Positions 3,007-49,500 of a stretch of 64,000 bases of DNA are shown here, piece by piece (the first letter of the stretch is position 1; every line of letters begins with the position of its first letter). The notes beneath the pieces are model-generated. The model ran no database searches. It was not told the DNA's origin and saw only the letters and a program-made list of their open reading frames with translations. Source of the DNA: a bacterium (GTDB lineage Bacteria; Krumholzibacteriota; Krumholzibacteriia; JACNKJ01); assembly GCA_024231955.1 (NCBI GenBank), contig JAAEPZ010000538.1, positions 766,551-830,550 of the forward strand. The letters run 5' to 3'. Both the position numbers and the translations under genes were made by a program.

Positions 3007-3180
3007 GATATGTCCTCGATATCTGCAAGTTGGTGAACTATATGTAATTATATCATCTCCGAAATATGGGGTCAATGTCCCTGCTTGCGATGACCACGCT
3101 GAGATTGTAGAGTCTACCTGTTGGACCAGCAGGCTGCTGAAACGATACGACCCGATTTCAAGATATGAGGATGTAGAAAC

Positions 3181-20621: not shown

Positions 20622-23209
<2,588 letters not shown>

Positions 23210-23268: not shown

Positions 23269-23371
23269 GTTGTATTGGCCTTGGTATTCGTGTATGCTTT
23301 ATGATAATTACGTTATACGAATTGAAACTCATAGCGGAATCCCTTGGCCCCGAATATGTGAGGTGCAAAGA

Positions 23372-25201
23372 ATGCCGTGTGGGGAAACATCCAGATTGAG
23401 CGTCAAAGTCATGGTGTGTGTTGTCATCGCGGTCAGCTCCCTGCTGATGAGTTGTCGGCTTGTCACCGAGGTGGAGAATGTTGCGGCCCTGAATGCGATT
23501 GTCGGCGAAACTACGTACCATGTCTCGGTAACGGGAAACAATGATGCCGATGGCCTCAGCCTGGAGACCGCCTGGCGAACGATAGATTATGCCGTCAATA
23601 CTGCAGATGCCGATGCCTTGGTCATTGTTCACGAGGGTGATTACCGGGAGAATTCGGGGGGCAACGGTTGTCTGAGCTTCACTGCGGAGATGGCCGATCT
23701 GCGACTGCAGGCGGCAGGTGAGGTCAGGATCCTGGCGGACGGCGCGGTGGAGCAGATCGTCCTGTTGCAGTACTGCAGCGGTTTTATCGAATTCGACGGA
23801 TTTGCCTTTGACGGGGAATCGGTTGTCGAGAGGGGAATCAAGGCCAACTGCGGCAACAAGAGGTTCGTTGATTGCCGCTTCCGGGCAGTGACCGATCTTG
23901 CAATAGAGATCCATGCCTCGTCGGCCGTCATGATCGAGGATTGCCTCTTTGGTTCGCCGGATCAACCTTTGGCCGCCGGAGGGGTGTATCTGAACGGTTC
24001 CGACGACTCTGCTGTTCGTGATTGCACATTTCATACTGCCGGCAATTCCGGCGATATAGTCTGTTGCTATGCGACGGACGATATCCTGATCGCCTCCAAC
24101 ATGTTCGGATCGCAAACGGAACCGCTGCACGACAGCAACAATAATTGGGTTGTCGTAGTGGAGGATGCCCAGGCACCCGTTATAGAACACAATACGTTTC
24201 ATATGCTGGAGGGCCGCTGCATCAGGGCTCGTCAAGTCTATGTCGATGTCGCCGGGATCGTCATCCGCAACAATGTGTTCCTGCACCAGGTTCTTTCGGC
24301 GGATTATTCGATCAGCGTTGGTCGTGAGGATCCGTGGGGCGCATCCAATTCGTCATCACTTATCTGCGGCAATATCCTGGACATCCCCACCGGCGATTCG
24401 ACGAAGCACAACATCTTCGTCGGCTACACTCTGGATCCCGTTATCAGGGACAATGTCTCCCATGGCGGCGGATTCGGATTGGGGATCAAGGGCAATGATC
24501 GCGCAGCGGTTTATCACAACTCCATCTACGATTGCGGCCGCCAGGGGATTGTCGACAAGGCGGGCCATGATTGCGAGTACTACGGCAACTACGTGAACAA
24601 TGCCTTCGGGGAGTGTGTGCGGATGACCGACGATATCTATTCCGGACGTGAGGTTCTGGATTCATACTGGCACGACAATACTCTGGTCGCTCATCCGCCG
24701 CATGCCGCCTACTGTGTCGACTCCCCGGTTGATCCGGTAAACGCCCGAATTCTATGTGACGACCACTATTTCGAACTTGAGGAATCGGCCCAGATACTCC
24801 TCACCTACCATGGCTTTCGTCACGACCTGACGTATGTTCGCAGTGAATTCGGTTGGGACCTGAACTCCAGTTTGACGGCCTCCATGGAGTTCCCCTCTTT
24901 TGTCGACATCGGTTGCATTCAACCGGGTCCCCGCTGGGCCAAGATCAGCTGTGAGATGTCCGAAGTGTGCGCTGGACAGCTACGCTACTGGAGCGAGAGT
25001 AGGGAGTGGACACGGCAGGTGGAGGATCCGACAATGATCGTGGAATTTGAACTTGAGCAGTTGCCGACCAACACCCGGATCTACTATCAGGCGGAACTGA
25101 TCGACCTGGACGGCAATTCCGTTCTCTCGCCCATCGCCTCCTTCAAGACGGGTCATCGCAGAAAATCAAAGATGCATTTTACGGAGGTCAACAGCGACTA
25201 G
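23372..25201 (+). CDS. Secreted or lipoprotein-like right-handed parallel beta-helix (pectin-lyase-fold) protein, without a CTD.
   Basis: N-terminus MPCGETSRLSVKVMVCVVIAVSSLLMSC (signal, possible lipobox). Repeated beta-helix-like turns (NNVFLH, GNILDI, DNVSHGGGFGLGIKGNDRAAVYHNSIYDCG). Confidence 0.65.
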   Translation: MPCGETSRLSVKVMVCVVIAVSSLLMSCRLVTEVENVAALNAIVGETTYHVSVTGNNDADGLSLETAWRTIDYAVNTADADALVIVHEGDYRENSGGNGCLSFTAEMADLRLQAAGEVRILADGAVEQIVLLQYCSGFIEFDGFAFDGESVVERGIKANCGNKRFVDCRFRAVTDLAIEIHASSAVMIEDCLFGSPDQPLAAGGVYLNGSDDSAVRDCTFHTAGNSGDIVCCYATDDILIASNMFGSQTEPLHDSNNNWVVVVEDAQAPVIEHNTFHMLEGRCIRARQVYVDVAGIVIRNNVFLHQVLSADYSISVGREDPWGASNSSSLICGNILDIPTGDSTKHNIFVGYTLDPVIRDNVSHGGGFGLGIKGNDRAAVYHNSIYDCGRQGIVDKAGHDCEYYGNYVNNAFGECVRMTDDIYSGREVLDSYWHDNTLVAHPPHAAYCVDSPVDPVNARILCDDHYFELEESAQILLTYHGFRHDLTYVRSEFGWDLNSSLTASMEFPSFVDIGCIQPGPRWAKISCEMSEVCAGQLRYWSESREWTRQVEDPTMIVEFELEQLPTNTRIYYQAELIDLDGNSVLSPIASFKTGHRRKSKMHFTEVNSD

Positions 25202-25272
25202 GCTGAAGCCGAGGCAACCAGCTGCTGCGGCGGATCTCCCCAGCGTCAAGGCACCGAGAGCCGATGTGCCGG

Positions 25273-26502
25273 TCAGCGGATCATAGTGATCTTGTGGGAC
25301 GCGGTTGCCGTTTCAGTCCGGAGCCGCAGGAGGTAGACGCCAGAGCCCAACTGCTCGCCCAGGCTGTTGCATCCGTCCCAGGTGATCGTCAAAGTTCCCC
25401 CATTACGCCAACCCTGAGCCAGCACGGCATGACGGAGACCGTTTGCGTCGTGGACGCTCAGCGTGATCTCCCCGGCAGCCGGCAGTGAACAGCTGATGGT
25501 CGTGCGGGGATTGAACGGATTGGGGTAACAGGTCAACATCCCGGCCGGGGCGGCCGGCGTCTCTCCGATGACGGAATAGTCAAAGTAGTCGCTGATATCC
25601 TCGATGAGCGGCGGATGCTCTTTGGTCGCGGTGATCAACTCGCCATTCTCCAGGCGGATCCAGCGTGCCTGCTCGTGGCCGGGATAGCGCGAAGCGATTG
25701 CCGTGGTGCCGGCATCCAATCCAGCTGCATTCGTGTAGAACAGATCAGCACCCTCGCGGTAGGCCCAAAGTGTGGCGCCGTCACTCAGTATGAAGTTGAG
25801 CGAGTGATATTCTCCGGGCAGGAAGGCCCGCAATTTCAGGATCACTTCACCCAGACCGGCTTTGACGTCCCAGCCGTGCTCCTCGACGGTTTGCATGACA
25901 TACATGAAGTAGAGTTCGCTGTCGATCCAATCCTGCGGATTGTCGCCATTGACCGGGGGGTGCAGCGTGAAGTAATCCGTGGGGATCAGATCAAGCAACA
26001 CGCTCTTCAGAATCGAACCGTTGTGAGCGAGAAACCAGTGCTTGCCGTTCAGCTCGCGATAGAAGGGGTGGGGATTGGGGATTTCGCAGAGACCGGAGGA
26101 GCAATTACGGACATGGGCAAAACAGACTTCGGGAAACAACTCGGCTCTGGCGATTACCGTCGGGTCGAATTCGGGATCGTTGATCGCAGCCAGGCTGCTC
26201 CGATTGATGACGGGCTCGGCACCCTCATCGGCGAAGGTGACCAGTCCCCAACCATTGCGATTGGTTGAACTCAGCTCCTTGAGAGAGTAGGGCGCGTAGA
26301 TGAGATGATCCTGGATCAGCTCGGAGCGGATCTCCGAGGAGATCGCACCCCACAGCCGGCAGTTGTGGTGGGCGGGTTCGCCGGAGAGATGATCGGGGAT
26401 TGCGGCGACCGGCGCGCCCCACTCCGGTGTCCGGCCGCTACCGACTGTAATCGCAAGCAGTATGACCGAAAAGAGCATTATGATTGTGATTCGTCCACGC
26501 AT
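25273..26502 (-). CDS. Secreted class-II (Ntn) glutamine amidotransferase-like protein (YafJ type) with a C-terminal Por_Secre_tail domain.
   Basis: Signal peptide MRGRITIIMLFSVILLAITVGSG. The block HNCRLWGAIS...NGWGLVTF...FAHVRNCSSG...HPFYRELNGKHWFLAHNGSI resembles the E. coli YafJ pattern. The C-terminus is CYPNPFNPRTTISCSL...GVYLLRL. Confidence 0.7.
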   Translation of the reverse strand: MRGRITIIMLFSVILLAITVGSGRTPEWGAPVAAIPDHLSGEPAHHNCRLWGAISSEIRSELIQDHLIYAPYSLKELSSTNRNGWGLVTFADEGAEPVINRSSLAAINDPEFDPTVIARAELFPEVCFAHVRNCSSGLCEIPNPHPFYRELNGKHWFLAHNGSILKSVLLDLIPTDYFTLHPPVNGDNPQDWIDSELYFMYVMQTVEEHGWDVKAGLGEVILKLRAFLPGEYHSLNFILSDGATLWAYREGADLFYTNAAGLDAGTTAIASRYPGHEQARWIRLENGELITATKEHPPLIEDISDYFDYSVIGETPAAPAGMLTCYPNPFNPRTTISCSLPAAGEITLSVHDANGLRHAVLAQGWRNGGTLTITWDGCNSLGEQLGSGVYLLRLRTETATASHKITMIR

Positions 26503-26851
26503 CTTGTGTCCCCCTGATAGCACAATCAGTATACACGATTCATTGAGATGTGGGTATCCATGCCTGGGCAATCGGGGCGACAACTCTCGCCCCCGACGGT
26601 CGATTTATACGATTTGCCGACCGGCATGAAGTGGCTATTTTGCCGATTTGTATCCTGGCATACATTTCCGGCTCTGTCCGTCTTGCTCGCTGATCAATCT
26701 CTGCTATCCTGACCATGCGCACTCTGGATGCGTCGGCCGGGTGCAGGTGTCGCGCAACCGGGGATCGCCGGTTATTGAATCGGATTCGAGCCTGACGAGG
26801 AGCGCCACGTGCTCCTCTCTCTCCGCCGGGAGGCTGAGATTCCAGACAGCA

Positions 26852-27586
26852 ATGGAGAAGTCGGTGAAAATCAAAGTAGTATACGACAATAAGGTCGGAG
26901 TGCCCGGACTGGTTGAGGATTGGGGTTTTGCCTGCCTTATCGAGAGCGGTTCCGAACGGATTCTTTTCGATACCGGTGCCGAAGGTGAGATACTCATCGA
27001 CAACATGCGCCGCATGAACATCCCCCCGACCTCCATCGAGAGGATCGTCATCTCGCACGACGACTGGGATCACGCAGGTGGATTGTCCGCAATACTCGAC
27101 GTCTGCGATGCTCCTCAGGTCCATGTCCTCCCCTCTTTTGATCGCGACCTCCTCGACACGGCGAAACGGAGCGGGCAGCTCGCTCCGGTGGACGCTCCCG
27201 GCTGGTTGACCGACAAGATCTGGAGCACGGGGCCGCTGCCGAGAATCAATCCCGTCACGGAGACCGGCGACGAACAGGCGCTGGCGATCAAGGGGCGGCA
27301 CGGCTTTCTGCTCCTTACAGGCTGTGCGCATCCCGGGTTGATCAATCTTGTTCAACACTGCCGCAAGGAGCTGGGGTCCGCTCCCAGGATGATCATGGGG
27401 GGGCTTCATCTCAAGGATCTGTCCAATGAGGAGGTGACCGGTGTCATCGCCGAATTGCGTGGGATGGGGGTTGCGAGAATTGCGCCCTGTCACTGCACCG
27501 GCGCCGAGGCGATGAGGCAACTTGGTTCAGCCTATTGCACCAATTACGTGGAGTCGGCCGTTGGCGAGATAATCGAGTGGCCGTGA
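26852..27586 (+). CDS. MBL-fold metallo-hydrolase.
   Basis: HDDWDHAGG metal-binding-like motif and CAHPG...GGLHL... in MBL order. Start placed at the MEKSVKIKV Met. Confidence 0.65.
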   Translation: MEKSVKIKVVYDNKVGVPGLVEDWGFACLIESGSERILFDTGAEGEILIDNMRRMNIPPTSIERIVISHDDWDHAGGLSAILDVCDAPQVHVLPSFDRDLLDTAKRSGQLAPVDAPGWLTDKIWSTGPLPRINPVTETGDEQALAIKGRHGFLLLTGCAHPGLINLVQHCRKELGSAPRMIMGGLHLKDLSNEEVTGVIAELRGMGVARIAPCHCTGAEAMRQLGSAYCTNYVESAVGEIIEWP

Positions 27587-27670: not shown

Positions 27671-28807
27671 GTGGTGGCCCCAAACCACCGAGGTGTCATG
27701 AACGTTGACGGCAAAGCATACAGGAGCATCCGGCTCGTTGACGATAACCGCTCGGTCGAAATCATCGATCAGACGGCACTGCCGCATCTGTTCCGCACCA
27801 TTGCTCTGAGCACGATGGCCGACGCCGCAAATGCCATCGCCGGCATGCAGGTGCGGGGCGCGCCGCTTATCGGCGCCACTGCCGCCTGCGGTCTGGCTCT
27901 GGCGATGAATCATGATCCCTCGGATGCCAACCTCGATCATACCCTTCGCACACTGGCCGCTACCCGACCGACCGCCGTCAATCTGATGTGGGCCCTGAAG
28001 CGTGTCGGCGAGGTGTTGCTGCCGCTGCCCCCGCGGGACAGGGGGGAGGTCGCCTGGGAGCTGGCCGGGGAGATCTGCGATGAGGATGTGGCGCTCAATC
28101 GCGCACTGGGCGAGCGGGGGTTGCCCCTGATCGAGGCGATCTGGGACGTGAAGGGGCGCGCGGACAGAGTGGATGTCCTGACCCACTGCAATGCCGGCTG
28201 GTTGGCGACGGTGGATTGGGGGACCGCGCTGGCGCCGATCTACCTGGCCCATGAGCGGGGCATCCCGGTTCATGTCTGGGTGGACGAAACCCGCCCGCGC
28301 AATCAGGGGGCAAGCCTCACCGCCTGGGAGTTGACGCGTCACGGCATCCCCTGCACGTTGATCGTCGACAACGCCGGTGGTCATCTGATGCGTCAGGGGC
28401 GGGTGGACATCTGTTTCGTCGGCACCGACCGCACAACCGCGAGAGGCGATGTCTGCAACAAGATCGGCACCTATCTCAAGGCGCTGGCTGCCCGGGACAA
28501 CAACCTGCCGTTCCATGTCTGCGCACCATCGCCCAGCATCGACTGGTCTGTCGAGGATGGCCTCGCCGAGATACCGATAGAGGATCGCGGGGCTGAGGAG
28601 GTCACGACAATGAGCGGCCTGGCGCCCGAGGGGGAGGTCGTCAATGTGGACATCGCACCCGCCGGTGTGATGGTGAGCAATCCAGGCTTCGATGTGACCC
28701 CCGCCCGACTGATCACCGGACTGATCACCGAACGCGGCGTCTGCCCGGCCACCCGTGCCGGACTGGCCGGGCTCTTCCCCGAATTCGCATCGGATCCGAA
28801 GCGCTAG
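27671..28807 (+). CDS. mtnA: S-methyl-5-thioribose-1-phosphate isomerase (eIF-2B alpha/beta/delta family).
   Basis: Family blocks [28 protein letters not shown] and [19 protein letters not shown]. Confidence 0.8.
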
Positions 28808-28813
28808 AGGAGT

Positions 28814-29494
28814 GTGCTTGAGATGAACAGCAAGGGACAATCGCCGCGCGCAGAGCTGCTGGCCGTCGCCAGGCAGTTGAATGCCGGCGGCCTGAACCAG
28901 GGCACATCGGGGAACCTGAGCATCCGCAGTGGCGGGAACCTTTTGATCACGCCGTCCGCCGTCCCCTACGATGAGATGGGGGAGGGTGACCTCGTCGAGA
29001 TGACCCTGACGGGCGATGTGCTGTCCGGCGGCAAGCCTTCGTCGGAATGGCGCTTCCACTGCGACATCCTCGCCGGGCGGGATGATGTTTCCGCCGTGCT
29101 GCACGCACATCCCGCATTCAGCACAGCACTGGCCTGTCTGCACCGGGAGATCCCCGCCTTCCACTACATGGTAGCTGCGGCCGGGGGCAACTCGATCCGT
29201 TGTGCGCCCTACGCCACCTTCGGCACGCCGGAGCTCTCCACCGCTGCGGCAGCCGCTTTGGCCGAGCGACGCGCCTGTCTGCTGGCCCAACATGGCATCA
29301 TCACCCTGGGCGCCACTCCGCGCGGTGCGCTGGATCTGGCGATCGAGGTGGAGGCGCTTGCGGCTCAGTACCTGCGCGTTTTACAGATAGGGGAACCGCG
29401 GCTGCTCGACGACGTCGAGATGAACCGCGTTCTTGCCGCTTTCAAGGATTATCGTCCCGGGGAACAAGGAGAGTGTCATGAGCCGCACCGATGA
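28814..29494 (+). CDS. mtnB: Class II aldolase/adducin-family protein, probably methylthioribulose-1-phosphate dehydratase.
   Basis: GNLSIR...HAHP class-II aldolase motifs. Immediately downstream of mtnA. Confidence 0.6.
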   Translation: MLEMNSKGQSPRAELLAVARQLNAGGLNQGTSGNLSIRSGGNLLITPSAVPYDEMGEGDLVEMTLTGDVLSGGKPSSEWRFHCDILAGRDDVSAVLHAHPAFSTALACLHREIPAFHYMVAAAGGNSIRCAPYATFGTPELSTAAAAALAERRACLLAQHGIITLGATPRGALDLAIEVEALAAQYLRVLQIGEPRLLDDVEMNRVLAAFKDYRPGEQGECHEPHR

Positions 29495-34572: not shown

Positions 34573-37500
34573 TCACCGCAACATGACAAGTCGCTGCTGT
34601 TTGGTGTACCCCTGCGCCTCCATCCGCAGAAGGTAGATTCCGCTGGATTGGTCGTGCCCTCTGTCGTCTCTGCCCCGCCAGACGAGTTCATGGTGTCCCT
34701 GCTCGAAGCGGGTATCGGCCAGACGGATCACCCGGCGGCCCGATAGATCGAAGATACTCATCCGCACCTGGCCCGACTCGGCCAGCGTGAAAGCGATAGT
34801 CACCCGAGGGTTGAACGGGTTGGGATAGGGCGTCAGCAGGCAGGTGGCGATCGGATGCTCGGGCGCGAGCACACTAAGTTCCCCCAACGGGAACCACGCC
34901 TCTTCGCCATCGCGGCCAAAGAGCGTGTAGCTGATCTCCTGACCCGCCCAATCGCCCGGGATTGTGTTGCGCGCCTCGTAACTGCCCTGTTCGATCTCCC
35001 GCCACGGCAACTCAAGCTGCGTATCGGCGTGAGTCGCCTCCAGACGGAATCCGGGGGCCTCGGCAGGCGTCCCCAGCGACCAGTGAAGTATCACGACCCC
35101 CTCTTCGGTCTCGGCCGAAAAATCGGCGAGCAGGACGGGCGTGTCGTCGCAGCCTTGACCGAAGGCGCCCATCTGCACCATACAGATGTTGTTGGCAGGC
35201 AGGCAGGGGGAGCGCGCGTTCAGGGTCATGTTGCCCTCGCTGAGGTCGCAGAGGAGAGGGTTGGCGGAGATGTTGCCGTCCGAGCCGGTCGGGTCCGAGA
35301 GGCTGCCCGTGTAGTTGCCTCCCAGGTTCATGAAGACATTGCTGCAGAAGATGGTGAAAATCTGCTCATCGACCGCTGCGGGGTTGCCCCAGATGCCCCC
35401 CTGGGCGTCGTTGAAGGCAACCAGGCAGGCATTCATGCTCACACAGGCGCCGTCGAAGGCGATGGCGTCGCCCGCCAGGCCGCTGGAATTGCCGACGAAT
35501 GTGCACTCTGACAGGGTGACGCTGGAGTAGAAGGTATACAGACCTCCACCCTTTATGCTGCTTGTGCAGTTCAGAAAACTGACTCGCGTCATGACACTCC
35601 CGCCCTGGCTCAGATATACGGCGCCGCCGCACCCATCCGCATAATGGATGGCCGGTACGTAGGAGGAGCAATCCTCGAACAGAACATCAGTGAAGTTGCC
35701 GTATCCATAAACCGCGCCCCCGACCCCTTGATAGTAGCTTTCAAACCCGTCGGTAGCGTGGTTATCCCTGAATACGCAGTTGTGCAGCTCCATGCCGCGG
35801 GCGAAGATCGCACCGCCTGCACCGGCGTGGTTGCCGCTGAAGGTGCAGTCCCTGATCGTCGGATTGGCACTGGCGGCGATGCTGATCGCTCCGCCGGCTA
35901 TGGCGCTGTTGTTCGCAAAGAGGCAATCGGAGATGAGCGGCGCGCCGTCCCCCCTGACAAGGATCGCACCCCCCGTCGCAAAGGATCCTCCGCAGGAATC
36001 GAAGATCATGTCCTTCACGACGACGTGCTCAGCATCGATGCACAGCGCGGATTCGGCTCGCACGCCTGCCGCACATCTGATGGTGAAGCCGGAGATCTCC
36101 GCGTAGTCGTCTCCACCCATGTTGAACCAGACGGCTCTGCCGAAGCAGTCGCCCCAGGGAGAGTATTCGATAATCGTGGAATCGGGACCCGCAAGGGCAT
36201 GCAGGACGATGCCTCTCCCCCCGAACTCGATGTGATTCTCCCCGATCACCTCATAGGTGCCGGGGCGGACAAGAACGGAGTCGCCGGTGTTGCCGACGGC
36301 CATCGCCTCCTGGATCGTCGGATAGTCATCGGGGACGATGTAGACGGCATAGCCGGCGAGATAGTCCTGGTTGGGCTGATCCGCTGACACATCGCTATAG
36401 ACGATCTCGGGGGGCGAGAAGGTGAAGTCGTCGTGCCGGGGTGTGATGACGCCGCTCCAGTCAACCGGGACATGGAAACCGTAGAACCCCTCCTCATCGC
36501 TGACGTTCGTCATCGCGGCGCCATGGAGCATGACGAAGGCCAGACCCTGGTTGTCCGGGTCGGTTATCCGTCCCGAGATCTCGATCAACGATTCGGCGCA
36601 ACCCTGGCCGTATCTGCCGATCAACCGGGCGCAGGGATTATGCGCAGCCAGGCAGGGGGAGGCGGCGTTCAGCGAGTAGTCGCCGGCCGCCGGATCGCAG
36701 AACAGGGGTTCGACCGCAATGTTGCAGTCGTCGCCTGTCGGATCGTCAAAACCGATATAGGAGCCTCCGCTGTTGCCGAATGAGTTGCAGTTGCTCAGCC
36801 GGATATCTCCGGATGAATCGGTGACGATACCGCCGCCATTGCCGGCGTAGGCCAGGATCGTATCCTCCAGATGCAGGGTTCCCGTTCCGTTATGAAAAAT
36901 GTGCCCGCCCGTGAGATCCTGCAATGTCTCCACCGCATTGTCGACGAATGTGCAGTTCGAGATGCTGGGTGAACAGGTGTTGTCGATGTACATAGCCCCA
37001 CCGTATCCCGATATCTCATAGTATTGATTGAGTTGCGCGAGATTGCCGGTGAACAGGCAATGCTCGAATACGGGGGTTGATTCTCCGCCGCAGTAGACGG
37101 CGCCGCCGTAGCCCTGCATCTGTCCGCCCGATTGAGAGTGGAAAGGCTTGGCGAGATTGTCGCGGAAGGTCACATTGCTGAACACGGGTGCGCCGCCCAG
37201 TATCTGCGTGGCACCTCCTCTTCCTCTACCATTTTCGATGAATAGCGTATTGCGGATCTCCGGAGTGCCGGCCTCGATCCGGAGCGAGGAGTTGGGGTGG
37301 GAGTTGTTCATGAACACACAGTTTTCGATCAGGGGCGAACTGTTCTCAAGTATGTTGAGTACGCCCCCGATGTGATAGCTATCGTCAAAATCCATGTCCC
37401 TGAATATGCAATCACGCAATGTGGCGGAGGAGTTGTCGAAGGTGACGCCGGAATTGCTGCTGCCCGTGATCGTGAACCCCTCAATCAGGAGCGCACGTGA

Positions 37501-40038
37501 TTCGTTCCCGCGGATCATCAACCCGCTTTGATAAGCGTCCGTGTTGATGATCGTGGTCTGCGCCGACCCGCCGCTGCCGATCAGGACAACATCCTTGCCG
37601 AGGAAATCTATCACCCCCCCGGGATACCCGGCGAGCGAGTATTCTCCGGGCGCCACCAGAATAGTATCTCCCGCCACGGCGAAGTCCAGCGCAGTCTGGA
37701 TGTCGGGGAAGATGCTGGGTACGAGATGGGGTTGGGACAGGCGTGTAGCCGTGAAATCCTGATCGGGGATATCTCCGTTCAGATCCGTATAGGAGCGGCT
37801 CGCCGGGGTCATGTCGTAGCCGAACTTGACGGGGGTCGCCGTGTCCGACCAGCCCGTCTGTCTGACCATCCCGTAATATCCCGTCTCGTCGGTGCGGGTC
37901 TCATACAGGCCGCTGGTGTCGATCAGAACATCCGCCAACGGTTCGCCCATCGTATCGAGCACATGGCCGCTGATCAGGTAATCGCTGACCTCGTCGCAGC
38001 CTCGGCCGAACATGCCCATCCGTCGGCCGCATCCGTTGTTTTCCGGCAGACAGGGAGAATTCGCACCCAGTTGATAAACACCGGAGAGTTGGGCACAGAA
38101 ACGGGGATCAAGGGAGATGTTGCCGTTCCGACCTGTTTGATCGCCCAGATTCTCGCAGTAGTTGCCGCCAAGGTTGTCGAATACGTCGGAGCAGGATATG
38201 GTCAGGACGCTGCCGTAAGGTTGTTTGAGCGCCGGCATGCTGCCCATATTGAAAGCAATGATACTCTCGGTCAAAGTGAATTCCCCGCCGTGGAGTTTAA
38301 CCGCCGGGCTTTTATTCTCCACCAGAGTGAGGTCCGAGCAACTTACGGATGCGTACAACGCGAATATCCCTCCGCTGGTTAAGGCACTGTTCCCTCGGAT
38401 CAGCGAGTTGTGCAACTCCAAGTCGGCATCGAGTCCGACATACAGCGCACCAGCCTGCTCGGCGCTGCAACCGGTGATCTGGAGATCCGAAATCACCCCC
38501 CGGGCAGCGCCCGCAATGTAGATACCTCCGCCTTGGCTGGAAGCGTGACAACCTTGGATCCGGATATCCACCAACGTAAAATCCATAGCATCCAGGAAGA
38601 TGCCGGCGCCGTCATGGGGGACGCTGCCGTTGATGATGCTGATGCCCTGGATACGGATGGAGGGCATCTCGGCGGACGACTGGATATCGAAACCGCGGCC
38701 TGCGCCCTCGCAATCGATGACCGTGACATCGGAGCCGCCCTCACCGATCAGGCTTATGTCCCGGTTGCCGAGAACGATCTCCTTGTTCCCCTCGCCGGTG
38801 TAGAGACCCGGCGCTACAATCACGGTGTAGCCGTCGAGGCAGGCATCCACGGCAGCCTGGATCGTGGGGTAGTCGGCGGGTACGTGATGGGATTGAACCT
38901 CACCGATGCAACCCATGCCGAGATAACCCATCAGCTCATGACAGTCATTGTTTGCGGGTAGACACTCCGAGTTCACCCCCAATGACAGATCGCCCGCCTC
39001 AAGATCGCAGAACAGCGGATCGACTCCGATGTTGCACGCCACACCAACCTGGCTGGGGATGCCGCCCCCGAAATTGCCGTGCGTGTTTCCGAAGATATCG
39101 CTGCTGGAGATATCGAATACTATGAAATTGTAGGCGTGGATACCATGCTGGTCGCCATGGTTGAAAGCGATAATGCCGTTGCGGAATTCAACTTCGCTGT
39201 AGGATCCAGCGCAATAGATGCCGCCGTTGCCGTTGTCTACGATATCGACCTGCTCCATCTCGATATCGCGGGAGTTTATGACATAGATACCGCCGCCGTT
39301 GAGAGCCGATGTGTTGCTGCGGATCTCGCCCTTCTCGATCACTGTAGCGGTGTTGTCGCTCAGGTGGAGTCCGCCGCCGCTGCCGTCCGTGCTGCAGCCG
39401 CTGATTATGAAATTCGTCAATATGCCCGCCGAGGCGTTCATGCTGAAGAGCCCGCCACCGTTTACCCGGGCAAAGCAATCGGTGATCACGATCCGATTCA
39501 GATCGGTTGAGCCGGGGGTTTCCAGATAGATGCCGCCACCCATCTCTGTGGATTGACATTCACTGATCAACAGGTCCTCGATGACGAGATGGTCGGGCAG
39601 AATGGCGTATAGACCGCCGCCATCGCCCACGCTGCTGCAATTCTCAATGATCAGATCGGCAAGGGCAGGTTTTCCCTGCAGACAGAAAATGCCGCCGCCA
39701 GATCCCGGTACATCGCCGTTGCGGATGGTGAACCCCTGAATGCGGTAGGGGACGTTCTCGTTCATCAGAATATAGAAGCCGCGGCCTGCGCCTTCGCAAT
39801 CGATTATCGTGGCTGCGGCTCCCCCGACCCCGATAACGGCGATTTCAAGGAAACTGATCTCTATGTCGACGTTGCCGGGACCGCTGTAGACGCCCGGCGC
39901 AACCAGAACGGTGTCGCCTGCGGCGGCGGCGTCGACACCCGCCTGGATGGTTGGAGCATCCTCAGGTACGGATATTGTTATTGCGGTGGCGGTTGAAGCG
40001 AAACAGAGGAGCAGACAGATACAGGCGGAGATGCGCAT
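34573..40038 (-). CDS. Giant (about 1821 aa) secreted modular protein with four parallel-beta-helix modules and a C-terminal Por_Secre_tail domain.
   Basis: Signal peptide MRISACICLLLCFASTATA. Four repeats each begin P-[TD]-IQ-x-A-[VL]-D-x-A-x-x-GDT-[IV]-LVAPG-x-Y and end with a Cys-rich linker (FCDLEAGDLSLGVNSECLPANNDC and three paralogous copies). The C-terminus is YPNPFNPRVTIAF...GIYLLRMEA...RLVMLR. Confidence 0.8.
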   Translation of the reverse strand: MRISACICLLLCFASTATAITISVPEDAPTIQAGVDAAAAGDTVLVAPGVYSGPGNVDIEISFLEIAVIGVGGAAATIIDCEGAGRGFYILMNENVPYRIQGFTIRNGDVPGSGGGIFCLQGKPALADLIIENCSSVGDGGGLYAILPDHLVIEDLLISECQSTEMGGGIYLETPGSTDLNRIVITDCFARVNGGGLFSMNASAGILTNFIISGCSTDGSGGGLHLSDNTATVIEKGEIRSNTSALNGGGIYVINSRDIEMEQVDIVDNGNGGIYCAGSYSEVEFRNGIIAFNHGDQHGIHAYNFIVFDISSSDIFGNTHGNFGGGIPSQVGVACNIGVDPLFCDLEAGDLSLGVNSECLPANNDCHELMGYLGMGCIGEVQSHHVPADYPTIQAAVDACLDGYTVIVAPGLYTGEGNKEIVLGNRDISLIGEGGSDVTVIDCEGAGRGFDIQSSAEMPSIRIQGISIINGSVPHDGAGIFLDAMDFTLVDIRIQGCHASSQGGGIYIAGAARGVISDLQITGCSAEQAGALYVGLDADLELHNSLIRGNSALTSGGIFALYASVSCSDLTLVENKSPAVKLHGGEFTLTESIIAFNMGSMPALKQPYGSVLTISCSDVFDNLGGNYCENLGDQTGRNGNISLDPRFCAQLSGVYQLGANSPCLPENNGCGRRMGMFGRGCDEVSDYLISGHVLDTMGEPLADVLIDTSGLYETRTDETGYYGMVRQTGWSDTATPVKFGYDMTPASRSYTDLNGDIPDQDFTATRLSQPHLVPSIFPDIQTALDFAVAGDTILVAPGEYSLAGYPGGVIDFLGKDVVLIGSGGSAQTTIINTDAYQSGLMIRGNESRALLIEGFTITGSSNSGVTFDNSSATLRDCIFRDMDFDDSYHIGGVLNILENSSPLIENCVFMNNSHPNSSLRIEAGTPEIRNTLFIENGRGRGGATQILGGAPVFSNVTFRDNLAKPFHSQSGGQMQGYGGAVYCGGESTPVFEHCLFTGNLAQLNQYYEISGYGGAMYIDNTCSPSISNCTFVDNAVETLQDLTGGHIFHNGTGTLHLEDTILAYAGNGGGIVTDSSGDIRLSNCNSFGNSGGSYIGFDDPTGDDCNIAVEPLFCDPAAGDYSLNAASPCLAAHNPCARLIGRYGQGCAESLIEISGRITDPDNQGLAFVMLHGAAMTNVSDEEGFYGFHVPVDWSGVITPRHDDFTFSPPEIVYSDVSADQPNQDYLAGYAVYIVPDDYPTIQEAMAVGNTGDSVLVRPGTYEVIGENHIEFGGRGIVLHALAGPDSTIIEYSPWGDCFGRAVWFNMGGDDYAEISGFTIRCAAGVRAESALCIDAEHVVVKDMIFDSCGGSFATGGAILVRGDGAPLISDCLFANNSAIAGGAISIAASANPTIRDCTFSGNHAGAGGAIFARGMELHNCVFRDNHATDGFESYYQGVGGAVYGYGNFTDVLFEDCSSYVPAIHYADGCGGAVYLSQGGSVMTRVSFLNCTSSIKGGGLYTFYSSVTLSECTFVGNSSGLAGDAIAFDGACVSMNACLVAFNDAQGGIWGNPAAVDEQIFTIFCSNVFMNLGGNYTGSLSDPTGSDGNISANPLLCDLSEGNMTLNARSPCLPANNICMVQMGAFGQGCDDTPVLLADFSAETEEGVVILHWSLGTPAEAPGFRLEATHADTQLELPWREIEQGSYEARNTIPGDWAGQEISYTLFGRDGEEAWFPLGELSVLAPEHPIATCLLTPYPNPFNPRVTIAFTLAESGQVRMSIFDLSGRRVIRLADTRFEQGHHELVWRGRDDRGHDQSSGIYLLRMEAQGYTKQQRLVMLR

Positions 40039-40248
40039 TATTACCTCTAGACAAGCTGTCCTGCATAATCCTGTGCAGGTATCAGTCAACCCTGAATATT
40101 AGTTGAACGGACCAATAGCGATGCGACGTAATAGCCTCCTGTATGAAGTAATATTAACATGGCGGCATAGGACTGTCAACGCGCAGTGAACACCGAGGGG
40201 GGATGGCGGATCTCATATGGGATCGGTTGCGAACAGGATCGACGCGAA

Positions 40249-41700
40249 TCAATCCCCCACCCAGGCCATATCCCTGTCGATGGGGTAGACGGGACGGCGC
40301 AGCCGCGTAAATGGCATCTCCTCGATCCGGCAGTCGGTGGCTCCGGGCGTGAGCGCCAGGATCGAACGGGGGCAGATGGCCTGGAGCGCGGCGGTCAGAT
40401 AGCCCCGTTTGATCGCCACCAGGCGATAACTTAGCGGGTCGAGGCCCAGTCGCTCATATTGTATCGGCTCGAGGAAATTGAGACGTCCCGTCGACAGGAT
40501 GATATCCACGCCCCGGCAGCGGACCAGCGCGACAGGTCCCTCGAGCTCGCGCCCATCGTACGATTCACGTTGATCGAAGAGCGCCAATACCTCGCAGTTC
40601 ACGGAGATCGACTCGCCGTGCCGTCTCTCGATCTTGCCGCCGATGCTCAAAGCCACATCGGCTCCGATTCCCGCCTCCCTGCAGGCGGCAACGGCGGCTT
40701 CGTCCCGGATCGAGGAGAACAATGCGCCCTGAACATCCCGCATCAGCAGGGCCGCGAGCAGCGCGGTGACATCCGTTGTGCCCCCGGCGCCGGGGTTGTC
40801 GCCCGTATCGGAGAGAAAGACGGTGCTCTCAGACGCAACCAGCGCCAGGGTCACCGCCTCCTCGATGGGCACCGCCTCCGCGTTGGCGGCGAAGTCGGCG
40901 CGCCTGCTCCAAAACAGTTCGGCGAGTTCGGCGGCACCGGCGTGGGCCAACTGCAGGTCATTGTCGGTGACCACAACCGCAGCCACGCCGAGATCGGGGA
41001 TGTCCGCCCAGCAGTGGCCATTGGCGACGGCCGCCGCCAGGATACCCGGTTGGGCCTCGAGTTGCGCAACCCGGTTCATTACGTCGAGCATGGGGGGGAG
41101 ATCGGTTTGCGCCATCTCACCCGGCAACAGAAAGGGGATGCGCGCCAGACCGATGCGGGGACGCACACCGTGGCGCAATATGCCGAGGAGCAGTCGGGCG
41201 GCACGTACGCCGGTGTCGTAGGTGTCGATGTGCGGCGCGGTGTGGTAAACCGTCAGAGCGTCCACCTGCGCCACGAGGTCTGCGGTGATATTGGCGTGCA
41301 TGTCCAGGGAGATGACCACGGGGATGTCGGGACCGACGATTCGCCGCAGCTCCGCGAGTATCGCCGCCTCGCAGTAATCGATCCCCTCCGTGCGCATGGC
41401 GCCGTGGAGGTGCAGGCAGACGCCATCGATATCGACGGCGGCTGCGAGCAGCCTTTTACTGAACTCCTCGAATGACGCCCGCTCAACCACTCCGCCGGGC
41501 ATGGCGCTGGCGATGAGCGATGGCTTGAGTTCGACACCCTCGGATACGAGAGTGTCGATAATGCCGCCGATCGCCGCCTGCAGGAGGGGACCCTCCTGCA
41601 GCATCTCATCACCGAACCGGAGGTGGAAATCACTGCGTTGCGTCAGATGTGGGGTGAACGTGTTGGACTCGTGTCCGATGTGACCGACGAGAACCTTCAC
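40249..41700 (-). CDS. M81-family metallopeptidase (MlrC/microcystinase-C-like).
   Basis: DUF1485-like N-terminus (KVLVGHIGHESNTF), then an MlrC C-terminal-like region. The exact start is uncertain; the ORF overlaps the upstream gene. Confidence 0.6.
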   Translation of the reverse strand: MKVLVGHIGHESNTFTPHLTQRSDFHLRFGDEMLQEGPLLQAAIGGIIDTLVSEGVELKPSLIASAMPGGVVERASFEEFSKRLLAAAVDIDGVCLHLHGAMRTEGIDYCEAAILAELRRIVGPDIPVVISLDMHANITADLVAQVDALTVYHTAPHIDTYDTGVRAARLLLGILRHGVRPRIGLARIPFLLPGEMAQTDLPPMLDVMNRVAQLEAQPGILAAAVANGHCWADIPDLGVAAVVVTDNDLQLAHAGAAELAELFWSRRADFAANAEAVPIEEAVTLALVASESTVFLSDTGDNPGAGGTTDVTALLAALLMRDVQGALFSSIRDEAAVAACREAGIGADVALSIGGKIERRHGESISVNCEVLALFDQRESYDGRELEGPVALVRCRGVDIILSTGRLNFLEPIQYERLGLDPLSYRLVAIKRGYLTAALQAICPRSILALTPGATDCRIEEMPFTRLRRPVYPIDRDMAWVGD

Positions 41701-41725
41701 GGATGCCTCTCCCCGCTTCAGGCGA

Positions 41726-43306
41726 TCAATGACCGCCCAGTTTGATGGCGTCACTCACCGCGAAACGTTCACGACGAACTGCCTGTTGCTTGCCGAGACG
41801 GTCCTCAACAGTGATCTCCAGGATATAGCCGCCCGGGTCCAGGTCGTCAACCGAGATGGTCAGCGGATGGACCGATTGCCCCCCGGCCTGACGATTGGCC
41901 AGTGTCGAGCTGATGTCGATGCTGTCCCTGTCGAAGTTCAACAGCCAGCCGCTCGTGCTCTCCCGCTTGGCCTCGAGAATGCGATAGCTCAGACGATAGT
42001 CGTTGAGTCCGTGGGCATCCGTGGCCAGATTGTAGATCTCGAAGTATACGGAGAGCGGATGATGCTTGTTGTAGGAGCGCAACGGGTGGGGGAAGATATT
42101 CCATTCACCCTTGCGGAACAGCTTGGGTTCCGCGTTGCCGTTGATCGCGCTGGCGAAGGCGATGTCGCTGAGGCGCAGGCTGTCCCCCAGATCGGGCACG
42201 GTGACCTTCGTGGTGTAGATCTGCAGAGCATCGCCCTGCATATCCTCCAGACGCAACGCGGCGCTGTATTCGCCGGGGAGGATCTCATGGACCATCAGAC
42301 CGGAGAACAGCTGCCCCTGATTTTCCGGTTCCTCGGTTCTCCTGTCGAAACGGATCTTGTTGCTGACTTCACTGACCGCTGTGCCGAGTGAATCGAAGAG
42401 TGTGCAACTCTGCAGCAACCCGGCTTCCCACCTGTTGTGTCCGGGCTTCCTCTTGAACTCCAGATCGTTCAGCCGGATCTGGTAACTCACATCCACCCGC
42501 ATGGCTGCGGTTTGGCTGCGGAAGCAGTCCATCGCGAACACGCTCCACAGAGGTTGGTTGTCCGTGAAGAGAGTGGAGTGGACCTCCCCGTTCTTCACAG
42601 CCTTCTGCAGTGAAGCCCGCATCATGGTCTGTTTGTTGATCGGATAGGGCGCAGGGGAGGAGTACTGCAGCTGCGACATTATCGGCCCGAGATCCTCCCC
42701 CTTGTTCTCCCTTCTTACGGTCTGCAGCGAGACATACTTGCCCGCGGCTTCAAAGTACTCGCTCGTGGTCAAGTGTTGTTCATAGGTCATCATGTACATC
42801 AGGTCGCTCCAGACCCAGGTCAGCCTGTTGCCGTTGACGTAGGTCAGGATATCGACCGGTTCGAAGTATACCTGGTCGGGGGGGCCGAACATGATGTAGT
42901 CGCGGCCGCGATGATCGAACCCAGGCGGATCGACCGACGTGTAGATATCCAGAGCGAGCTTGAGCCTGCGCAGGTGCTCCTCCCGCCGCTCGTTCACCGG
43001 CGTCGTCGGGCTGGGATCACGCACTCGCCAGAACTCCTCAAGCCAGAGATCCAGCTCCCTCTTGTCGGTAATCCGGACAAAGGACTGATGCTCCTCGGGG
43101 GACATGATCAGGGACAGATGCATGCGCGAGGAGCTCTTTTCGGGGAAGCTGATCTCTCCGGGCACAGTGCCGTAGAGCGGAGGTTTCGATTTGCCGCATC
43201 GGCAGAGCCCCCCTATGGTCAGCAGCAGCATCAGGAGGAGCAGGGGATACTTGGCGCTGATGAGGATGTTGTGGGCAGCTGATCTTTGTTTGGGGCGTTG
43301 AGACAT
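41726..43306 (-). CDS. GWxTD-domain-containing secreted protein.
   Basis: Signal or lipoprotein-like N-terminus. GWxTD-family pattern EFWRVRDP...ERREEHLRRL...GFDHRGRDYIMFGPPD. Confidence 0.55.
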   Translation of the reverse strand: MSQRPKQRSAAHNILISAKYPLLLLMLLLTIGGLCRCGKSKPPLYGTVPGEISFPEKSSSRMHLSLIMSPEEHQSFVRITDKRELDLWLEEFWRVRDPSPTTPVNERREEHLRRLKLALDIYTSVDPPGFDHRGRDYIMFGPPDQVYFEPVDILTYVNGNRLTWVWSDLMYMMTYEQHLTTSEYFEAAGKYVSLQTVRRENKGEDLGPIMSQLQYSSPAPYPINKQTMMRASLQKAVKNGEVHSTLFTDNQPLWSVFAMDCFRSQTAAMRVDVSYQIRLNDLEFKRKPGHNRWEAGLLQSCTLFDSLGTAVSEVSNKIRFDRRTEEPENQGQLFSGLMVHEILPGEYSAALRLEDMQGDALQIYTTKVTVPDLGDSLRLSDIAFASAINGNAEPKLFRKGEWNIFPHPLRSYNKHHPLSVYFEIYNLATDAHGLNDYRLSYRILEAKRESTSGWLLNFDRDSIDISSTLANRQAGGQSVHPLTISVDDLDPGGYILEITVEDRLGKQQAVRRERFAVSDAIKLGGH

Positions 43307-46534: not shown

Positions 46535-49500
46535 TTGGAGGTTCTCGTGAAGAGCGTGCTGATCAGATCGATCATGATATTCCGGATATTCATGTTGCTG
46601 CTTCTCTTTGCCGATGAGCTGGCGCAGGCCCAGGCGGGTCCGGTCAGGCAATTGGATCTCCGTGCACCGCTCGCGGCTGCGACACTGACGCGGGCTGCCG
46701 CTCCGGGTCACCACCTGCCGGATGCCGCGCTGTTGACAAAACAGCGCAATGTACGTCGCCAGGTATCGGCGAAGCAGGCGATACCGGATCGCCCCCTGCC
46801 CGAATTCATCGATCGCGACTATACCGCCGAAGCGAGTCACGGCGGCGATGGCCGCGAGTGCGAACTCGCCCCCGAGATGAAGGCCGAGTTGGCGCGGCTC
46901 ACCGACCTGCTCCACCAGAGGGAGGCCGAGGGGGCCGCGGGGGGGATCGTACGCGGCTCCGACCGCGAAGCCCCCTGGAGCGAATCACATCTGCTCGCGG
47001 ATGCCACCCACATGGCGGACCAGTACGTCTCGCTGCAACGGAGTCCGGCGGGCCACCTCTACGCAGTCTGGCAAGCCAATGATCTGGGCGGTTCGGATCG
47101 CGATATCCACATCGCCGTGAGTCTCTCCAACGGCATGACCTGGCAAGTCTACGAAATGCCCTCCTATGATCAGGACGAATACCACGCCGAACTCGCCATC
47201 GATGCCGCCGGTTATCTGTTCGTCACCTGGATTCGCGCCGATGGTGTGATCCTCCGTTCGCGCTCCATGACGTCTGAATCCGTTCAGAGCTGGGCCTGGG
47301 TCAAAGGCCTCAGCAGCGGCGAAACCCACGCCACCCCCTGCATCGCCGTCAGCGGTTCGGGCAACTATGCCCGCGTTTTCATCTGCGCGGCGTGGAATAC
47401 GATCAACTACAATCTCATGACCTATGAGTGGACCCTGATCTGGATGTACAGCACCAACGGCGGCGATACGGTCAATCACGATTACTTCGATCCCGACGGC
47501 TACCCCGACTACTGGCCCGACGCCGAGATGAACAACTCCACCGTTTACCTGCTCAATGCCGAAAAGGATTACCAGACGGGCGTGCTCGAGGTCGTAGCGG
47601 CCGATGGCCCGCTCGGCGGCATATTCAACGAGCCGTGGTACCTCACCTCCTGGACCGACTTCAACTGCCAGTTCCCCTCCCTGACGGCACAGGGCGACAA
47701 CGTGTTCGCCGTCTTCCAGATGGAGTACGACGACGGGATCGGCAACACCGATGGCGACATCGTTTTCTGCTACTCGGACGATGGCTTGGCCAGCATGTAT
47801 GGTCCCTACGAGATGGCCTGCGACGATTACGACAGCGTGGGACCGGTTCTCTACAGCCACGATGGTGTGGTGGGCTGCCTGTGGCTCGACGCGGCGCCGG
47901 GCGATGATGAGTTCATGTTGTGCGCCCGTCAGGCCGGAGGGTCCGGGCATCCCGATGCCTGGGGCGAAATAGAAACGATACTCGAAGACAGATATGTCGA
48001 TCCCATGTTCCGCACCGCAGCGGGTACTTTCGGCTACAACAAACTGCACGCAGCCTGGTCCGATCGACGCGATTATCCCACGCAGAACATGAATATCTAC
48101 ACAAGTGAGCGACCGGTGCTGCCCAACCTGACGGCGTGCGTGCCTGCCGGCTGGGACAGTTCGCTGGTGCTCAACCTGGTTGCGGGGGAGCGGAGCAACG
48201 GCCTGCTCGCAGCGGACGAAACCGCCTACCTGAGCTGCGCCTTCACGAATAGCGGCATGCAGGACATCGCCGCCGATTTTCAATTGCGTCTTCTGGTGGA
48301 CGGTGAGCCCTACGCGACCTGGGAGCTCAGCGGCGGCCTGGGTACCGGTTACTACAGCGCGGTGGAGGACTATCCGTTGACCCTGCCCGCGGGCATTCAC
48401 CTGATCGAATTCGAACTCGATTTCACCGACCTCATCGACGAAGACGACGAAACCGACAACACCGCCAGCGACAATTTCAATTTCATCGATGGTGATCCGC
48501 GACTCCTGCTGGCGCCGACCCAGCTCACACATGTCTTTGACGACGGCCAGGCGCGCGGCGCGCAGCCCGTCACGCCTTTGATCAATCGTGTGAGCGTGCC
48601 GGTGATCAGCGAGCGTCTCGCCGAAGCGATGTTCGACGCGGGCGATGGGGAGAAACTGCGCGTTCTGGTCGAGCCGCGGCGTCAGGTCGATGCCCTCGCC
48701 CTGCGCACCCGGCTTGCGGGGCTGTCGCGAGACGGTCGCGGGGAGCGGACTGCCAGTGCGCTTCGCAGCACCATGCGTGAAAATCGCGTCTTGCTCGATC
48801 CTCAACTCCGCGCTCTGATCGAGCGGGGTGAGGCCCTGGAGCCGGTGGAGCTTTGGTTCTCCGGCCAGTTGCTGGTCGAGATGAGCTCCGTCGCCGTACG
48901 TGAACTGGCGGAGAATCCGGAGGTGGGGTTGCTCTGGCTGGACGATCTGAAGAGCGAGTTCTTCACCGAACCGAGTGAGACGGAGACCGCCGGTGGTCGC
49001 GCTCTGGCCTGGCACCTGAACAAGATAGGCGCCCCAGCCGCCTGGGCGCAGGGGTACGACGGCACCGGGATCCTGATCGGCCACCTCGACAGCGGCGTGG
49101 CCTGGGATCATCCCGATCTGACTGCCGGCCTTTGGGACGGAGGTTCCAGCTACCCGCATCACGGCTGGGATTGTCTCGACGAGGATAATGATCCCTACGA
49201 CGGCGACACCGACTACCATCACGGCACCCACACGGCGGGTTGCATCATCGGCACCGGCGCCTTGGGTACAACCAGCGGCGCGGCTCCCGGTGCGCGTCTG
49301 ATCGCTTTGCGCTGTGTCCCCGGGTACTTCGCCGACTTCGTGGAGGGGCTGCAATTCTGCCTGGATCACGGCACGCAGGTGATAAACGCATCGGCGGGCT
49401 GGTCCAATCCCCCGGCGGAGCTCAGTGAGGCCAACCGCGATAATGCGAATATCCTGGCCGCCGCCGGGATAGCCTGGGTTTGCGCCGCCGGCAATGGCGA

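Follow-up and report, generated by a model that had tools for sequence, protein, structure and literature searches.

A predicted exported Ntn amidohydrolase of the YafJ/EgtC type with a putative self-cleavage site and a C-terminal sorting tail

The gene at positions 25273-26502, on the reverse strand of the 64,000-nucleotide stretch of contig JAAEPZ010000538.1 analysed here (the window), encodes a 409-residue protein that very likely is an exported N-terminal nucleophile (Ntn) hydrolase. Taking all parts together, we probably best explain it as an exported, cofactor-free Cys-Ntn amidohydrolase zymogen of the YafJ/EgtC branch, which would cleave itself and be directed at glutamine or γ-glutamyl compounds. 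An earlier note on this DNA had described an exported YafJ-type Ntn enzyme with a tail like those of type IX secretion systems (T9SS), and this description is upheld by matches to GATase_4 and TIGR04183, both above their cut-offs, and by a signal peptide. Fold and chemistry are known; what is new is the compartment, a clade-specific cleavage-site motif and the unexpected breadth of the clade, all of which extend known Ntn biology and do not overturn it. To our knowledge, every characterised Ntn glutaminase domain of the YafJ/EgtC/PurF type resides in the cytoplasm or in plastids, and a literature search found no paper on an exported enzyme of the class-II glutamine amidotransferase (GATase) type or on T9SS cargo of this kind. 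The localisation that the earlier note called unusual is indeed so among characterised members, but is the rule within a large exported clade.

Fold and glutamine site of the catalytic domain

The catalytic domain (residues 48-312) matched Pfam GATase_4 (PF13230) over residues 77-256 (E = 2.1e-18; 66.7 bits, cut-off 23), and every motif of the catalytic block quoted in the earlier note is present in the protein (C48RLWG, N83GWG, H145PFYREL and A159HNG). An AlphaFold2 (AF2) model built on 64 homologues, with a mean predicted local distance difference test (pLDDT) of 86.6 and a predicted template modelling (pTM) score of 0.72, has pLDDT values mostly above 90 in this domain and places its first β strand at residues 48-54, beginning exactly at Cys48. 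When the model was compared with the PDB using Foldseek, the best matches were the EgtC structures (4zfj, 4zfk, 4zfl; E 3e-14, template modelling (TM) score 0.83 normalised on EgtC), followed by the glutaminase domains of GlmS and PurF and the YafJ-like structures 1te5 and 3mdn, with all five proteins at E 1e-8 or better. TM scores on the stand-alone members EgtC and 3mdn were 0.71-0.83. The model thus predicts a four-layer α-β-β-α fold of the class-II Ntn glutamine amidotransferase type in which Cys48 is placed as the Ntn nucleophile, as the earlier note had supposed.

Sequence profiles point to the same relatives: the family profile matched 3mdn (2e-21), 1te5 (3e-16) and EgtC (6e-9), and hhalign of the family against E. 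coli YafJ gave probabilities of 98.4 (local) and 99.3 (global), with a Cys-to-GW spacing of 36 residues in the window protein versus 33 in YafJ. The E. coli YafJ sequence used agreed at 100% identity with the gene annotated in E. coli K-12, and that of E. coli GlmS was checked against 1jxa. Across the 64 homologues C48, H130, R132, G137, H145, H160, G162, D194 and G242 are invariant, and N161 is conserved in at least 90%. Several of these residues align with the glutamine site of GlmS (Table 1), and a HMMER alignment to the PurF structure agrees on the Arg and on the HNG motif. In GlmS and PurF, Arg73 and Thr76 bind the α-carboxylate of glutamine, Asn98-Gly99 forms the oxyanion hole and Asp123 binds the α-amino group; the Arg, Asn-Gly and Asp residues of a glutamine site all have predicted counterparts here. 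Within the substrate-binding loop, C134 and C139 are invariant in the 20 closest homologues and are not found in cytoplasmic YafJ, which makes the pair a candidate disulfide or metal site. The same loop carries up to five cysteines in some relatives (NCSSGCCCDGCD).

EgtC, the γ-glutamyl hercynylcysteine sulfoxide amidohydrolase, is likewise a stand-alone class-II GATase-like Ntn hydrolase without a synthase domain; its Cys nucleophile is followed by Arg, and according to its PDB titles it binds glutamine or a γ-glutamyl moiety. However, it is only 20% identical to the window protein, is cytoplasmic with a Cys2 exposed via Met removal, and lacks a signal peptide, a pro-segment and a sorting tail. 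Orthology with EgtC was rejected, as TIGR03442 scored 43.7 bits against a cut-off of 218.65, and no ergothioneine-biosynthesis family was found among the Pfam-annotated surrounding genes (β-helix, metallo-β-lactamase (MBL)-fold, MtnA-like, aldolase-II and ATP synthase β). YafJ-type proteins (E. coli YafJ; P. aeruginosa PA1307, 1te5; SPO2029, 3mdn) belong to the same Pfam family and have the motifs DGWG, H-x-R, HPF, AHNG, DSE and SDG in common with the window protein, but they begin Met-Cys, are cytoplasmic, and lack the H-x↓C leader (the arrow marking the proposed scissile bond), the C134/C139 pair and an export signal.

Table 1. Positions of the gene, its parts and related features in the window; the last row gives positions within the named homologous loci
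Feature	Positions	Strand	Basis
Complete coding sequence, 409 codons + stop (stop 25273-25275)	25273..26502	-	open reading frame list
Shine-Dalgarno-like GGGGGA, 6-nt spacer to ATG (26502-26500)	26509..26514	-	direct sequence reading
Sec-type signal peptide, ~residues 1-23: MRGR, hydrophobic core ITIIMLFSVILLAITV, GSG	26434..26502	-	hydropathy, homologue N-termini
Pro-segment/linker, ~residues 24-47	26362..26433	-	variable among relatives; disordered in model
H46-N47↓C48, proposed scissile site and nucleophile	26359..26367	-	conservation
Catalytic Ntn domain (class-II glutamine-amidotransferase-like, YafJ/EgtC-type), residues 48-312	25567..26361	-	GATase_4, model, Foldseek, hhalign
R132-N-C-S135	26098..26109	-	R132 = GlmS Arg73, S135 = GlmS Thr76 (global hhalign)
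C134-S-S-G-L-C139, cysteine pair in substrate-binding loop, candidate disulfide	26086..26103	-	conservation
N161-G162 of AHNG motif	26017..26022	-	= GlmS Asn98-Gly99 (global hhalign)
D194 of IDSE motif	25921..25923	-	= GlmS Asp123 (hhalign)
Flexible linker, residues 313-323	25534..25566	-	pLDDT <50 for residues 314-320
C-terminal β-sandwich sorting domain (T9SS type A / FlgD-Ig type), residues 324-409	25276..25533	-	TIGR04183, Foldseek, window tails
592-aa protein, FlgD_ig, no other Pfam match	1297-3075	-	
1,838-aa β-helix protein with tail	34573-40089	-	
1,335-aa S8 subtilase with tail	46535-50542	+	
Upstream β-helix genes of homologous loci	L001 53-1477; L002 2567-5885; L003 2375-5877; L009 4530-5681; L018 8-4480; L034 4202-5908		

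Export of the family and exposure of Cys48

We searched for the family with two word-indexed searches and an exhaustive phmmer search, and give counts as 50%-identity cluster representatives. With the catalytic domain alone as query, 1,076 clusters were found at E ≤ 1e-3, 305 at E ≤ 1e-10 and 115 at E ≤ 1e-30. Members, derived from metagenome-assembled genomes (MAGs) throughout, are named as Zixibacteria, Eisenbacteria, Armatimonadetes, Omnitrophota and Bathyarchaeia, to which GTDB loci add Fibrobacteraceae and Chloroflexi. The Cys lies directly behind the initiator Met in none of the ~200 relatives in which it could be located, and the C-terminal partner domains (FlgD_ig/Por_Secre_tail, PF10342, CarboxypepD_reg, MG2, fn3 and metallophosphatase) are all of extracytoplasmic type.

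The window protein carries an N-terminal extension of 47 residues, made up of a signal peptide of ~21-23 residues and a pro-segment of ~24-26, which is well short of the ~40 residues that the earlier note had assigned to the pro-segment. A positively charged n-region precedes a hydrophobic core of 16 residues, with a Kyte-Doolittle maximum of 3.16 over 11 residues (7-17), and small residues follow the core; there is no lipobox cysteine, and the homologues have an N-terminus of the same type. Residues 25-43 have pLDDT values below 50 in the AF2 model, and H46 does not vary among the 20 closest homologues.

Such an extension on a cytoplasmic YafJ-like enzyme might also arise from a mis-called start, a caveat entered in the earlier note: high-GC open reading frames are often over-extended, and a longer TTG start of the same frame exists at 26583. 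However, inspection of the sequence revealed no ATG, GTG or TTG in the stretch from the signal peptide to Cys48, a Shine-Dalgarno-like motif stands before the ATG at 26502, and the extension is conserved across the family, with ~200 relatives carrying a signal peptide or upstream domains. A C-terminal sorting tail is, moreover, sensible only for an exported protein. The sequence excludes a mis-called start.

We then grouped the relatives by the distance of the Cys from the hydrophobic core, type A having it more than 6 residues beyond the core and type B within 6. Type A, which includes the window protein, comprises 122 proteins with a median linker of 19.5 aa (range 8-64). His occupies position -2 in 112 of them (92%), while position -1 is N in 71, E in 19, A in 16, Q in 9 and another residue in 7, and the linker-type site can be written H-[N/E/A/Q]↓C-R-x-W. 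Among the 29 type-B proteins, to which ~20 'IEA↓CKLWA' proteins can be added, His is found at -2 in 5 of 29, and -1 is A in 18, S in 4, N in 3, G in 2 and E in 2. This site resembles AxA↓C, and its small -1 residues (A, S, G) follow the signal-peptidase I pattern; in type B, the cut of signal peptidase would itself leave Cys at the N-terminus. In a third, internal class (n = 18), whose proteins reach 3,754 aa, the Cys is at positions 124-2080, with His at -2 in 12 and N, E or Q at -1 in 18/18; DUF2341/LamG/FG-GAP or M14 carboxypeptidase modules lie upstream of the domain. Because the domain lies inside the protein, this Cys cannot be exposed by Met removal or by signal peptidase.

The motif is therefore conserved only where removal of upstream sequence is needed, which argues for cleavage at that site, and it recurs across phyla and in archaea without a conserved protease neighbour, which argues for self-cleavage. 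The family-wide coupling of the H-x↓C site to the presence of a pro-segment is new evidence for the activation at HHN↓C that the earlier note had called for; the pro-segment ends directly before the nucleophile, at a conserved site. Judging from this sequence pattern and from analogy with PurF, self-cleavage at N47↓C48 is likely. In PurF of eukaryotes and many microbes the N-terminal propeptide is removed autocatalytically (PMC7056826), so that the earlier note's statement that Met removal exposes Cys-1 of class-II amidotransferases is partly right but incomplete. PurF (B. subtilis, plants, animals) has the same Ntn glutaminase fold and has its Cys exposed by propeptide removal (PMC7056826). 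Unlike the window protein, it works as a transferase in the cytoplasm or in plastids, with a phosphoribosyltransferase domain and an ammonia channel, and has neither signal peptide nor sorting tail. PurF propeptides commonly have Glu at -1, as do the H-E↓C variants here; they are short (11 residues in B. subtilis) and are not known to have a conserved His at -2.

As a mechanism, we propose that Sec export and removal of the signal peptide, suggested by the sequence features above, would be followed by a cut that the folded domain makes in its own Asn47-Cys48 bond. An N-to-S acyl shift by Cys48 and hydrolysis of the resulting thioester, with His46 helping, would release the ~24-residue disordered pro-segment and leave the Cys48 α-amino group free as general base. 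The motif coupling and the PurF precedent are the grounds for this step.

The same exported Ntn amidohydrolase might instead lose its pro-segment to a separate protease, either a T9SS-associated enzyme or a peptidase of the periplasm or the cell surface, for which H-[N/E/Q/A] would be the recognition motif. A dedicated protease would need a conserved P2-P1 motif just as much, the window encodes an S8 subtilase with the same sorting tail, and the -1 residue is not uniform. Yet the motif spans Krumholzibacteriota-like bacteria, Zixibacteria, Eisenbacteria, Chloroflexi and Bathyarchaeia, for which one common maturase is unlikely, no protease gene occurs among the conserved neighbours, and PurF, with the same fold, is documented to self-cleave (PMC7056826). 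We consider a separate maturase unlikely.

Alternatively, the precursor might never be cleaved, with an internal Cys48 active in a Cys-His dyad in which His46, instead of a free α-amine, serves as general base. The 92% conservation of His at -2 in proteins whose Cys does not coincide with a signal-peptidase site would fit such a dyad, as would the fact that strand residues i and i+2 face the same side, and it would account for domains inside giant proteins. But relatives whose signal peptide abuts the Cys mostly have no His, so that a free N-terminus is enough, and the fold probably relies on it; moreover, the His is missing in 6/18 internal copies, and the AF2 model shows disorder over residues 25-43 and has the strand starting no earlier than C48. 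We know of no precedent for an uncleaved Cys-His dyad in the class-II Ntn glutaminase fold, and find this alternative very improbable by comparison with self-cleavage at N47↓C48.

Intein-like Asn cyclisation at H-N↓C was also considered and rejected as a general mechanism: 23 of the 122 type-A proteins (19%) have a non-cyclisable residue at -1 (A, S, G or H), and there is no Hint fold upstream, where the segment is disordered and variable, so that the likeness to an intein junction is superficial.

Sorting tail, giant relatives and proposed function

The C-terminal domain is modelled by AF2 as a seven-strand β sandwich and reaches 26.6 bits with NCBIfam TIGR04183 (T9SS type A sorting domain; cut-off 23). 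Foldseek matches of the whole model to PorZ and PorU structures (5m11, 6za2; ~1e-4) are probably attributable to this tail. Three other window proteins carry a FlgD-Ig / T9SS-type tail (Table 1), from which we conclude that the tail is a general sorting tag in the host genome. Aligned with the tail of the Ntn hydrolase, those of the β-helix protein and the S8 subtilase show 37-40% identity, and the three aligned tails have the motif YPNPFNP...SGVYLLR...K-hydrophobic-R/K in common. T9SS substrates are defined by a Sec signal peptide and a C-terminal sorting domain (PMC12618676, PMC9143113), and by sequence the window protein has both. It is like T9SS type A cargo of Bacteroidota in its Sec signal peptide and its C-terminal β-sandwich sorting domain above the TIGR04183 cut-off, and differs in that its host is probably a member of Krumholzibacteriota and its tail is equally near to FlgD-Ig and Por_Secre_tail. 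A Pfam scan of 20 window proteins found no T9SS component family, a result that covers the 64-kb window only and comes from no search aimed at T9SS machinery.

In a number of relatives the GATase_4 domain is embedded in proteins of 1,100-3,750 aa, with the Cys at 670-2080 (P0214, P0215, P0230, P0184, P0189, P0241, P0228, P0271). DUF2341 and FG-GAP lie upstream in 3/4 of the giants scanned (P0215, P0228, P0271), two of which also have LamG, and P0215 carries InlB B-repeats, PKD and fn3 downstream. In P0184 an M14 carboxypeptidase with a cytosolic-carboxypeptidase N-domain lies upstream; this peptidase family includes deglutamylases, which would suit a γ-glutamyl theme.

These architectures could mean that the domain serves surface proteins chiefly for maturation by self-cleavage, or for binding without catalysis, and is not a metabolic amidohydrolase, since it is embedded in 1,000-3,700-aa surface proteins with LamG, DUF2341, FG-GAP, PKD, fn3 and InlB-repeat domains. 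However, R132, S135 and D194, which go beyond what cleavage needs, are invariant or near-invariant across the clade, and apart from the sorting tail the window protein has no other functional module; a purely structural or maturation role seems to us quite unlikely. A wider proposal that keeps the amidohydrolase, and which we put forward tentatively, is that the H-[N/E/Q]↓C-R-x-W GATase_4 domain is an unrecognised self-cleaving extracellular module, serving as a zymogen switch in small proteins, making an internal cut in giants, and forming a Cys-based counterpart of γ-glutamyltranspeptidase (GGT). If so, the cut in the giants would be comparable to SEA/GAIN autoproteolysis and would leave a surface-bound γ-glutamyl or glutamine amidohydrolase, and the Cys-based GGT counterpart would be widespread in uncultured anaerobic bacteria and archaea.

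Several relatives with a C-terminal PF10342 domain (P0021, P0124, P0130, P0131, P0133), together with the Chloroflexi loci L016 and L020, have a signal peptide whose end resembles a lipobox (SSGC, LSGC or SSAC). In these relatives, taken to be of the Chloroflexi type, this end is followed by a linker of ~20 residues and then by H-N↓C or H-A↓C. Self-cleavage, if it occurs in these proteins, would free the catalytic domain from its own lipid anchor.

As for the reaction catalysed, Pfam and NCBIfam found GATase_4 and the sorting tail in the window protein and no synthase domain. An amidotransferase proper of the PurF, GlmS, AsnB or GltS kind has a synthase domain or partner, which the window protein does not; the lack of a synthase domain and of a conserved partner gene argues for a hydrolase and not a transferase. 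Of the enzyme type given in the earlier note, the Ntn class-II fold therefore stands, but 'amidotransferase' fits less well than amidohydrolase. The Arg/Ser/Asp trio recognises a free α-amino-acid head group, and EgtC removes a γ-glutamyl group, which together suggest a glutaminase or a γ-glutamyl amidohydrolase. On this reading of the active-site residues, we put the case for and against a glutamine or γ-glutamyl substrate at about even.

Once matured, the enzyme would be carried over the outer membrane by its T9SS-type tail, to the surface or the medium. There it would hydrolyse the side-chain amide of a substrate bearing a free α-amino-acid head group, candidates being L-glutamine, γ-glutamyl peptides, glutathione-like thiols and the free end of poly-γ-glutamate, and would yield glutamate plus ammonia or an amine for uptake. 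This last step is suggested by the conserved Arg/Ser/Asn-Gly/Asp glutamine-site residues and by the missing synthase domain.

Functional analogues exist among other exported Ntn hydrolases, namely GGT and periplasmic enzymes of the penicillin V acylase (PVA) / bile-salt hydrolase type. GGT self-cleaves and hydrolyses γ-glutamyl amides outside the cytoplasm, and the Cys1 of Gram-negative PVAs is exposed by signal-peptidase cleavage, as would be the case in the type-B relatives. In contrast to the window protein, both fall into other Ntn families, Pfam G_glu_transpept and CBAH, whose sequences show no detectable relationship to it, and the nucleophile of GGT is Thr; neither GGT nor PVA/bile-salt hydrolase types were among the Foldseek matches listed (to about E 1e-3).

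Several observations weigh against the interpretation of the protein as an exported, self-cleaving amidohydrolase carried by a T9SS. The His at -2 separates type A from type B with a Fisher p of 2e-15, but the sequences are phylogenetically related and their independence is overstated by this value; position -1 is not fixed (N, E, A, Q, S), and 10/122 linker-type proteins have no His at -2. The Pfam GATase_4 alignment of the window protein begins at profile position 28, short of Cys48 (in the relative P0228 it extends from Cys802, at profile position 2, the canonical Cys). A free catalytic thiol is oxidation-sensitive outside the cell. No conserved operon partner that would point to a substrate was found across P0004, P0141 and 33 GTDB loci. 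The tail falls just below the cut-offs of Pfam Por_Secre_tail (PF18962; 20.2 vs 27) and FlgD_ig (26.7 vs 27). Finally, the literature places T9SS in Bacteroidota or the Fibrobacterota-Chlorobiota-Bacteroidota (FCB) group (PMC12618676, PMC9143113).

With regard to oxidation, the C134/C139 pair and anoxic habitats fit an extracytoplasmic enzyme in reducing surroundings, where a free catalytic thiol could survive. The clade is confined to lineages known chiefly from anoxic sediments and groundwater.

If the interpretation is true, these proteins would be a new class of extracellular enzymes for scavenging nitrogen and amino acids in lineages of sediments and groundwater (Krumholzibacteriota-like bacteria, Zixibacteria, Eisenbacteria, Chloroflexi and Bathyarchaeia), and a new type of cargo for T9SS-like sorting tails outside Bacteroidota. 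They would also offer a compact, sequence-defined self-cleavage site that is directly testable in vitro. Database names would need correction, as one half of the protein is covered by 'Class II glutamine amidotransferase' and the other by 'T9SS type A sorting domain-containing protein'.

Gene and genomic surroundings

The 409-aa product is a 100% match to a public entry (P0001 / MCP4547956.1) from an 856,869-bp contig of a MAG labelled 'bacterium', where it is named 'T9SS type A sorting domain-containing protein'. Its gene is convergent with a β-helix gene (23270-25201, +) and divergent from an MBL-fold gene (26648-27586, +), and looks monocistronic. Within 25100-27000 we found no sigma-70-type promoter, intrinsic terminator or Rfam family; the sole Rfam match there, U6atac, had an E value of 0.74 and was dismissed as noise.

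Across P0004, P0141 and the 33 GTDB loci, the neighbours are housekeeping genes or reflect lineage-restricted synteny. Loci L023-L032, from Eisenbacteria and other MAGs with homologues of 30-35% identity, have a common upstream arrangement of a divergent DUF362 / 4Fe-4S protein (~355 aa) and 1-2 unannotated ORFs (open reading frames) of ~250 aa, with a class-III aminotransferase in four of the loci. This synteny is probably a lineage signal and not a functional operon.

A co-directional β-helix gene (Pfam Beta_helix where scanned) lies directly upstream of the homologue in six of the closest homologous loci (Table 1). BLASTP of the window β-helix gene against that of L034 revealed no similarity (E about 1), and the adjacency may be a coincidence in genomes rich in β-helix genes or a loose functional link. 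The ORF listed for the window β-helix neighbour (23270-25201) probably reaches too far at its 5' end: a stretch inside it, MPCGETSRLSVKVMVCVVIAVSSLLMSC, resembles a lipoprotein signal peptide with the lipobox LMSC, and by sequence this neighbour may be an exported lipoprotein.

Elsewhere in the window, a gene pair of methionine-salvage type, IF-2B (MtnA-like isomerase) and class-II aldolase (MtnB-like), lies at 27671-29494 (+), just past the divergent MBL-fold gene, and an M81/MlrC-type metallopeptidase is encoded at 40249-41754 (-). An ATP synthase β subunit (21502-22941, +) sits in a run of plus-strand ORFs resembling an F1Fo ATP synthase operon, of which the β subunit alone was scanned. It is 83-84% identical to that of Candidatus Krumholzibacteriota and ~75% to those of Gemmatimonadota and Eisenbacteria, and the host is probably a Krumholzibacteriota-like bacterium of the FCB group.

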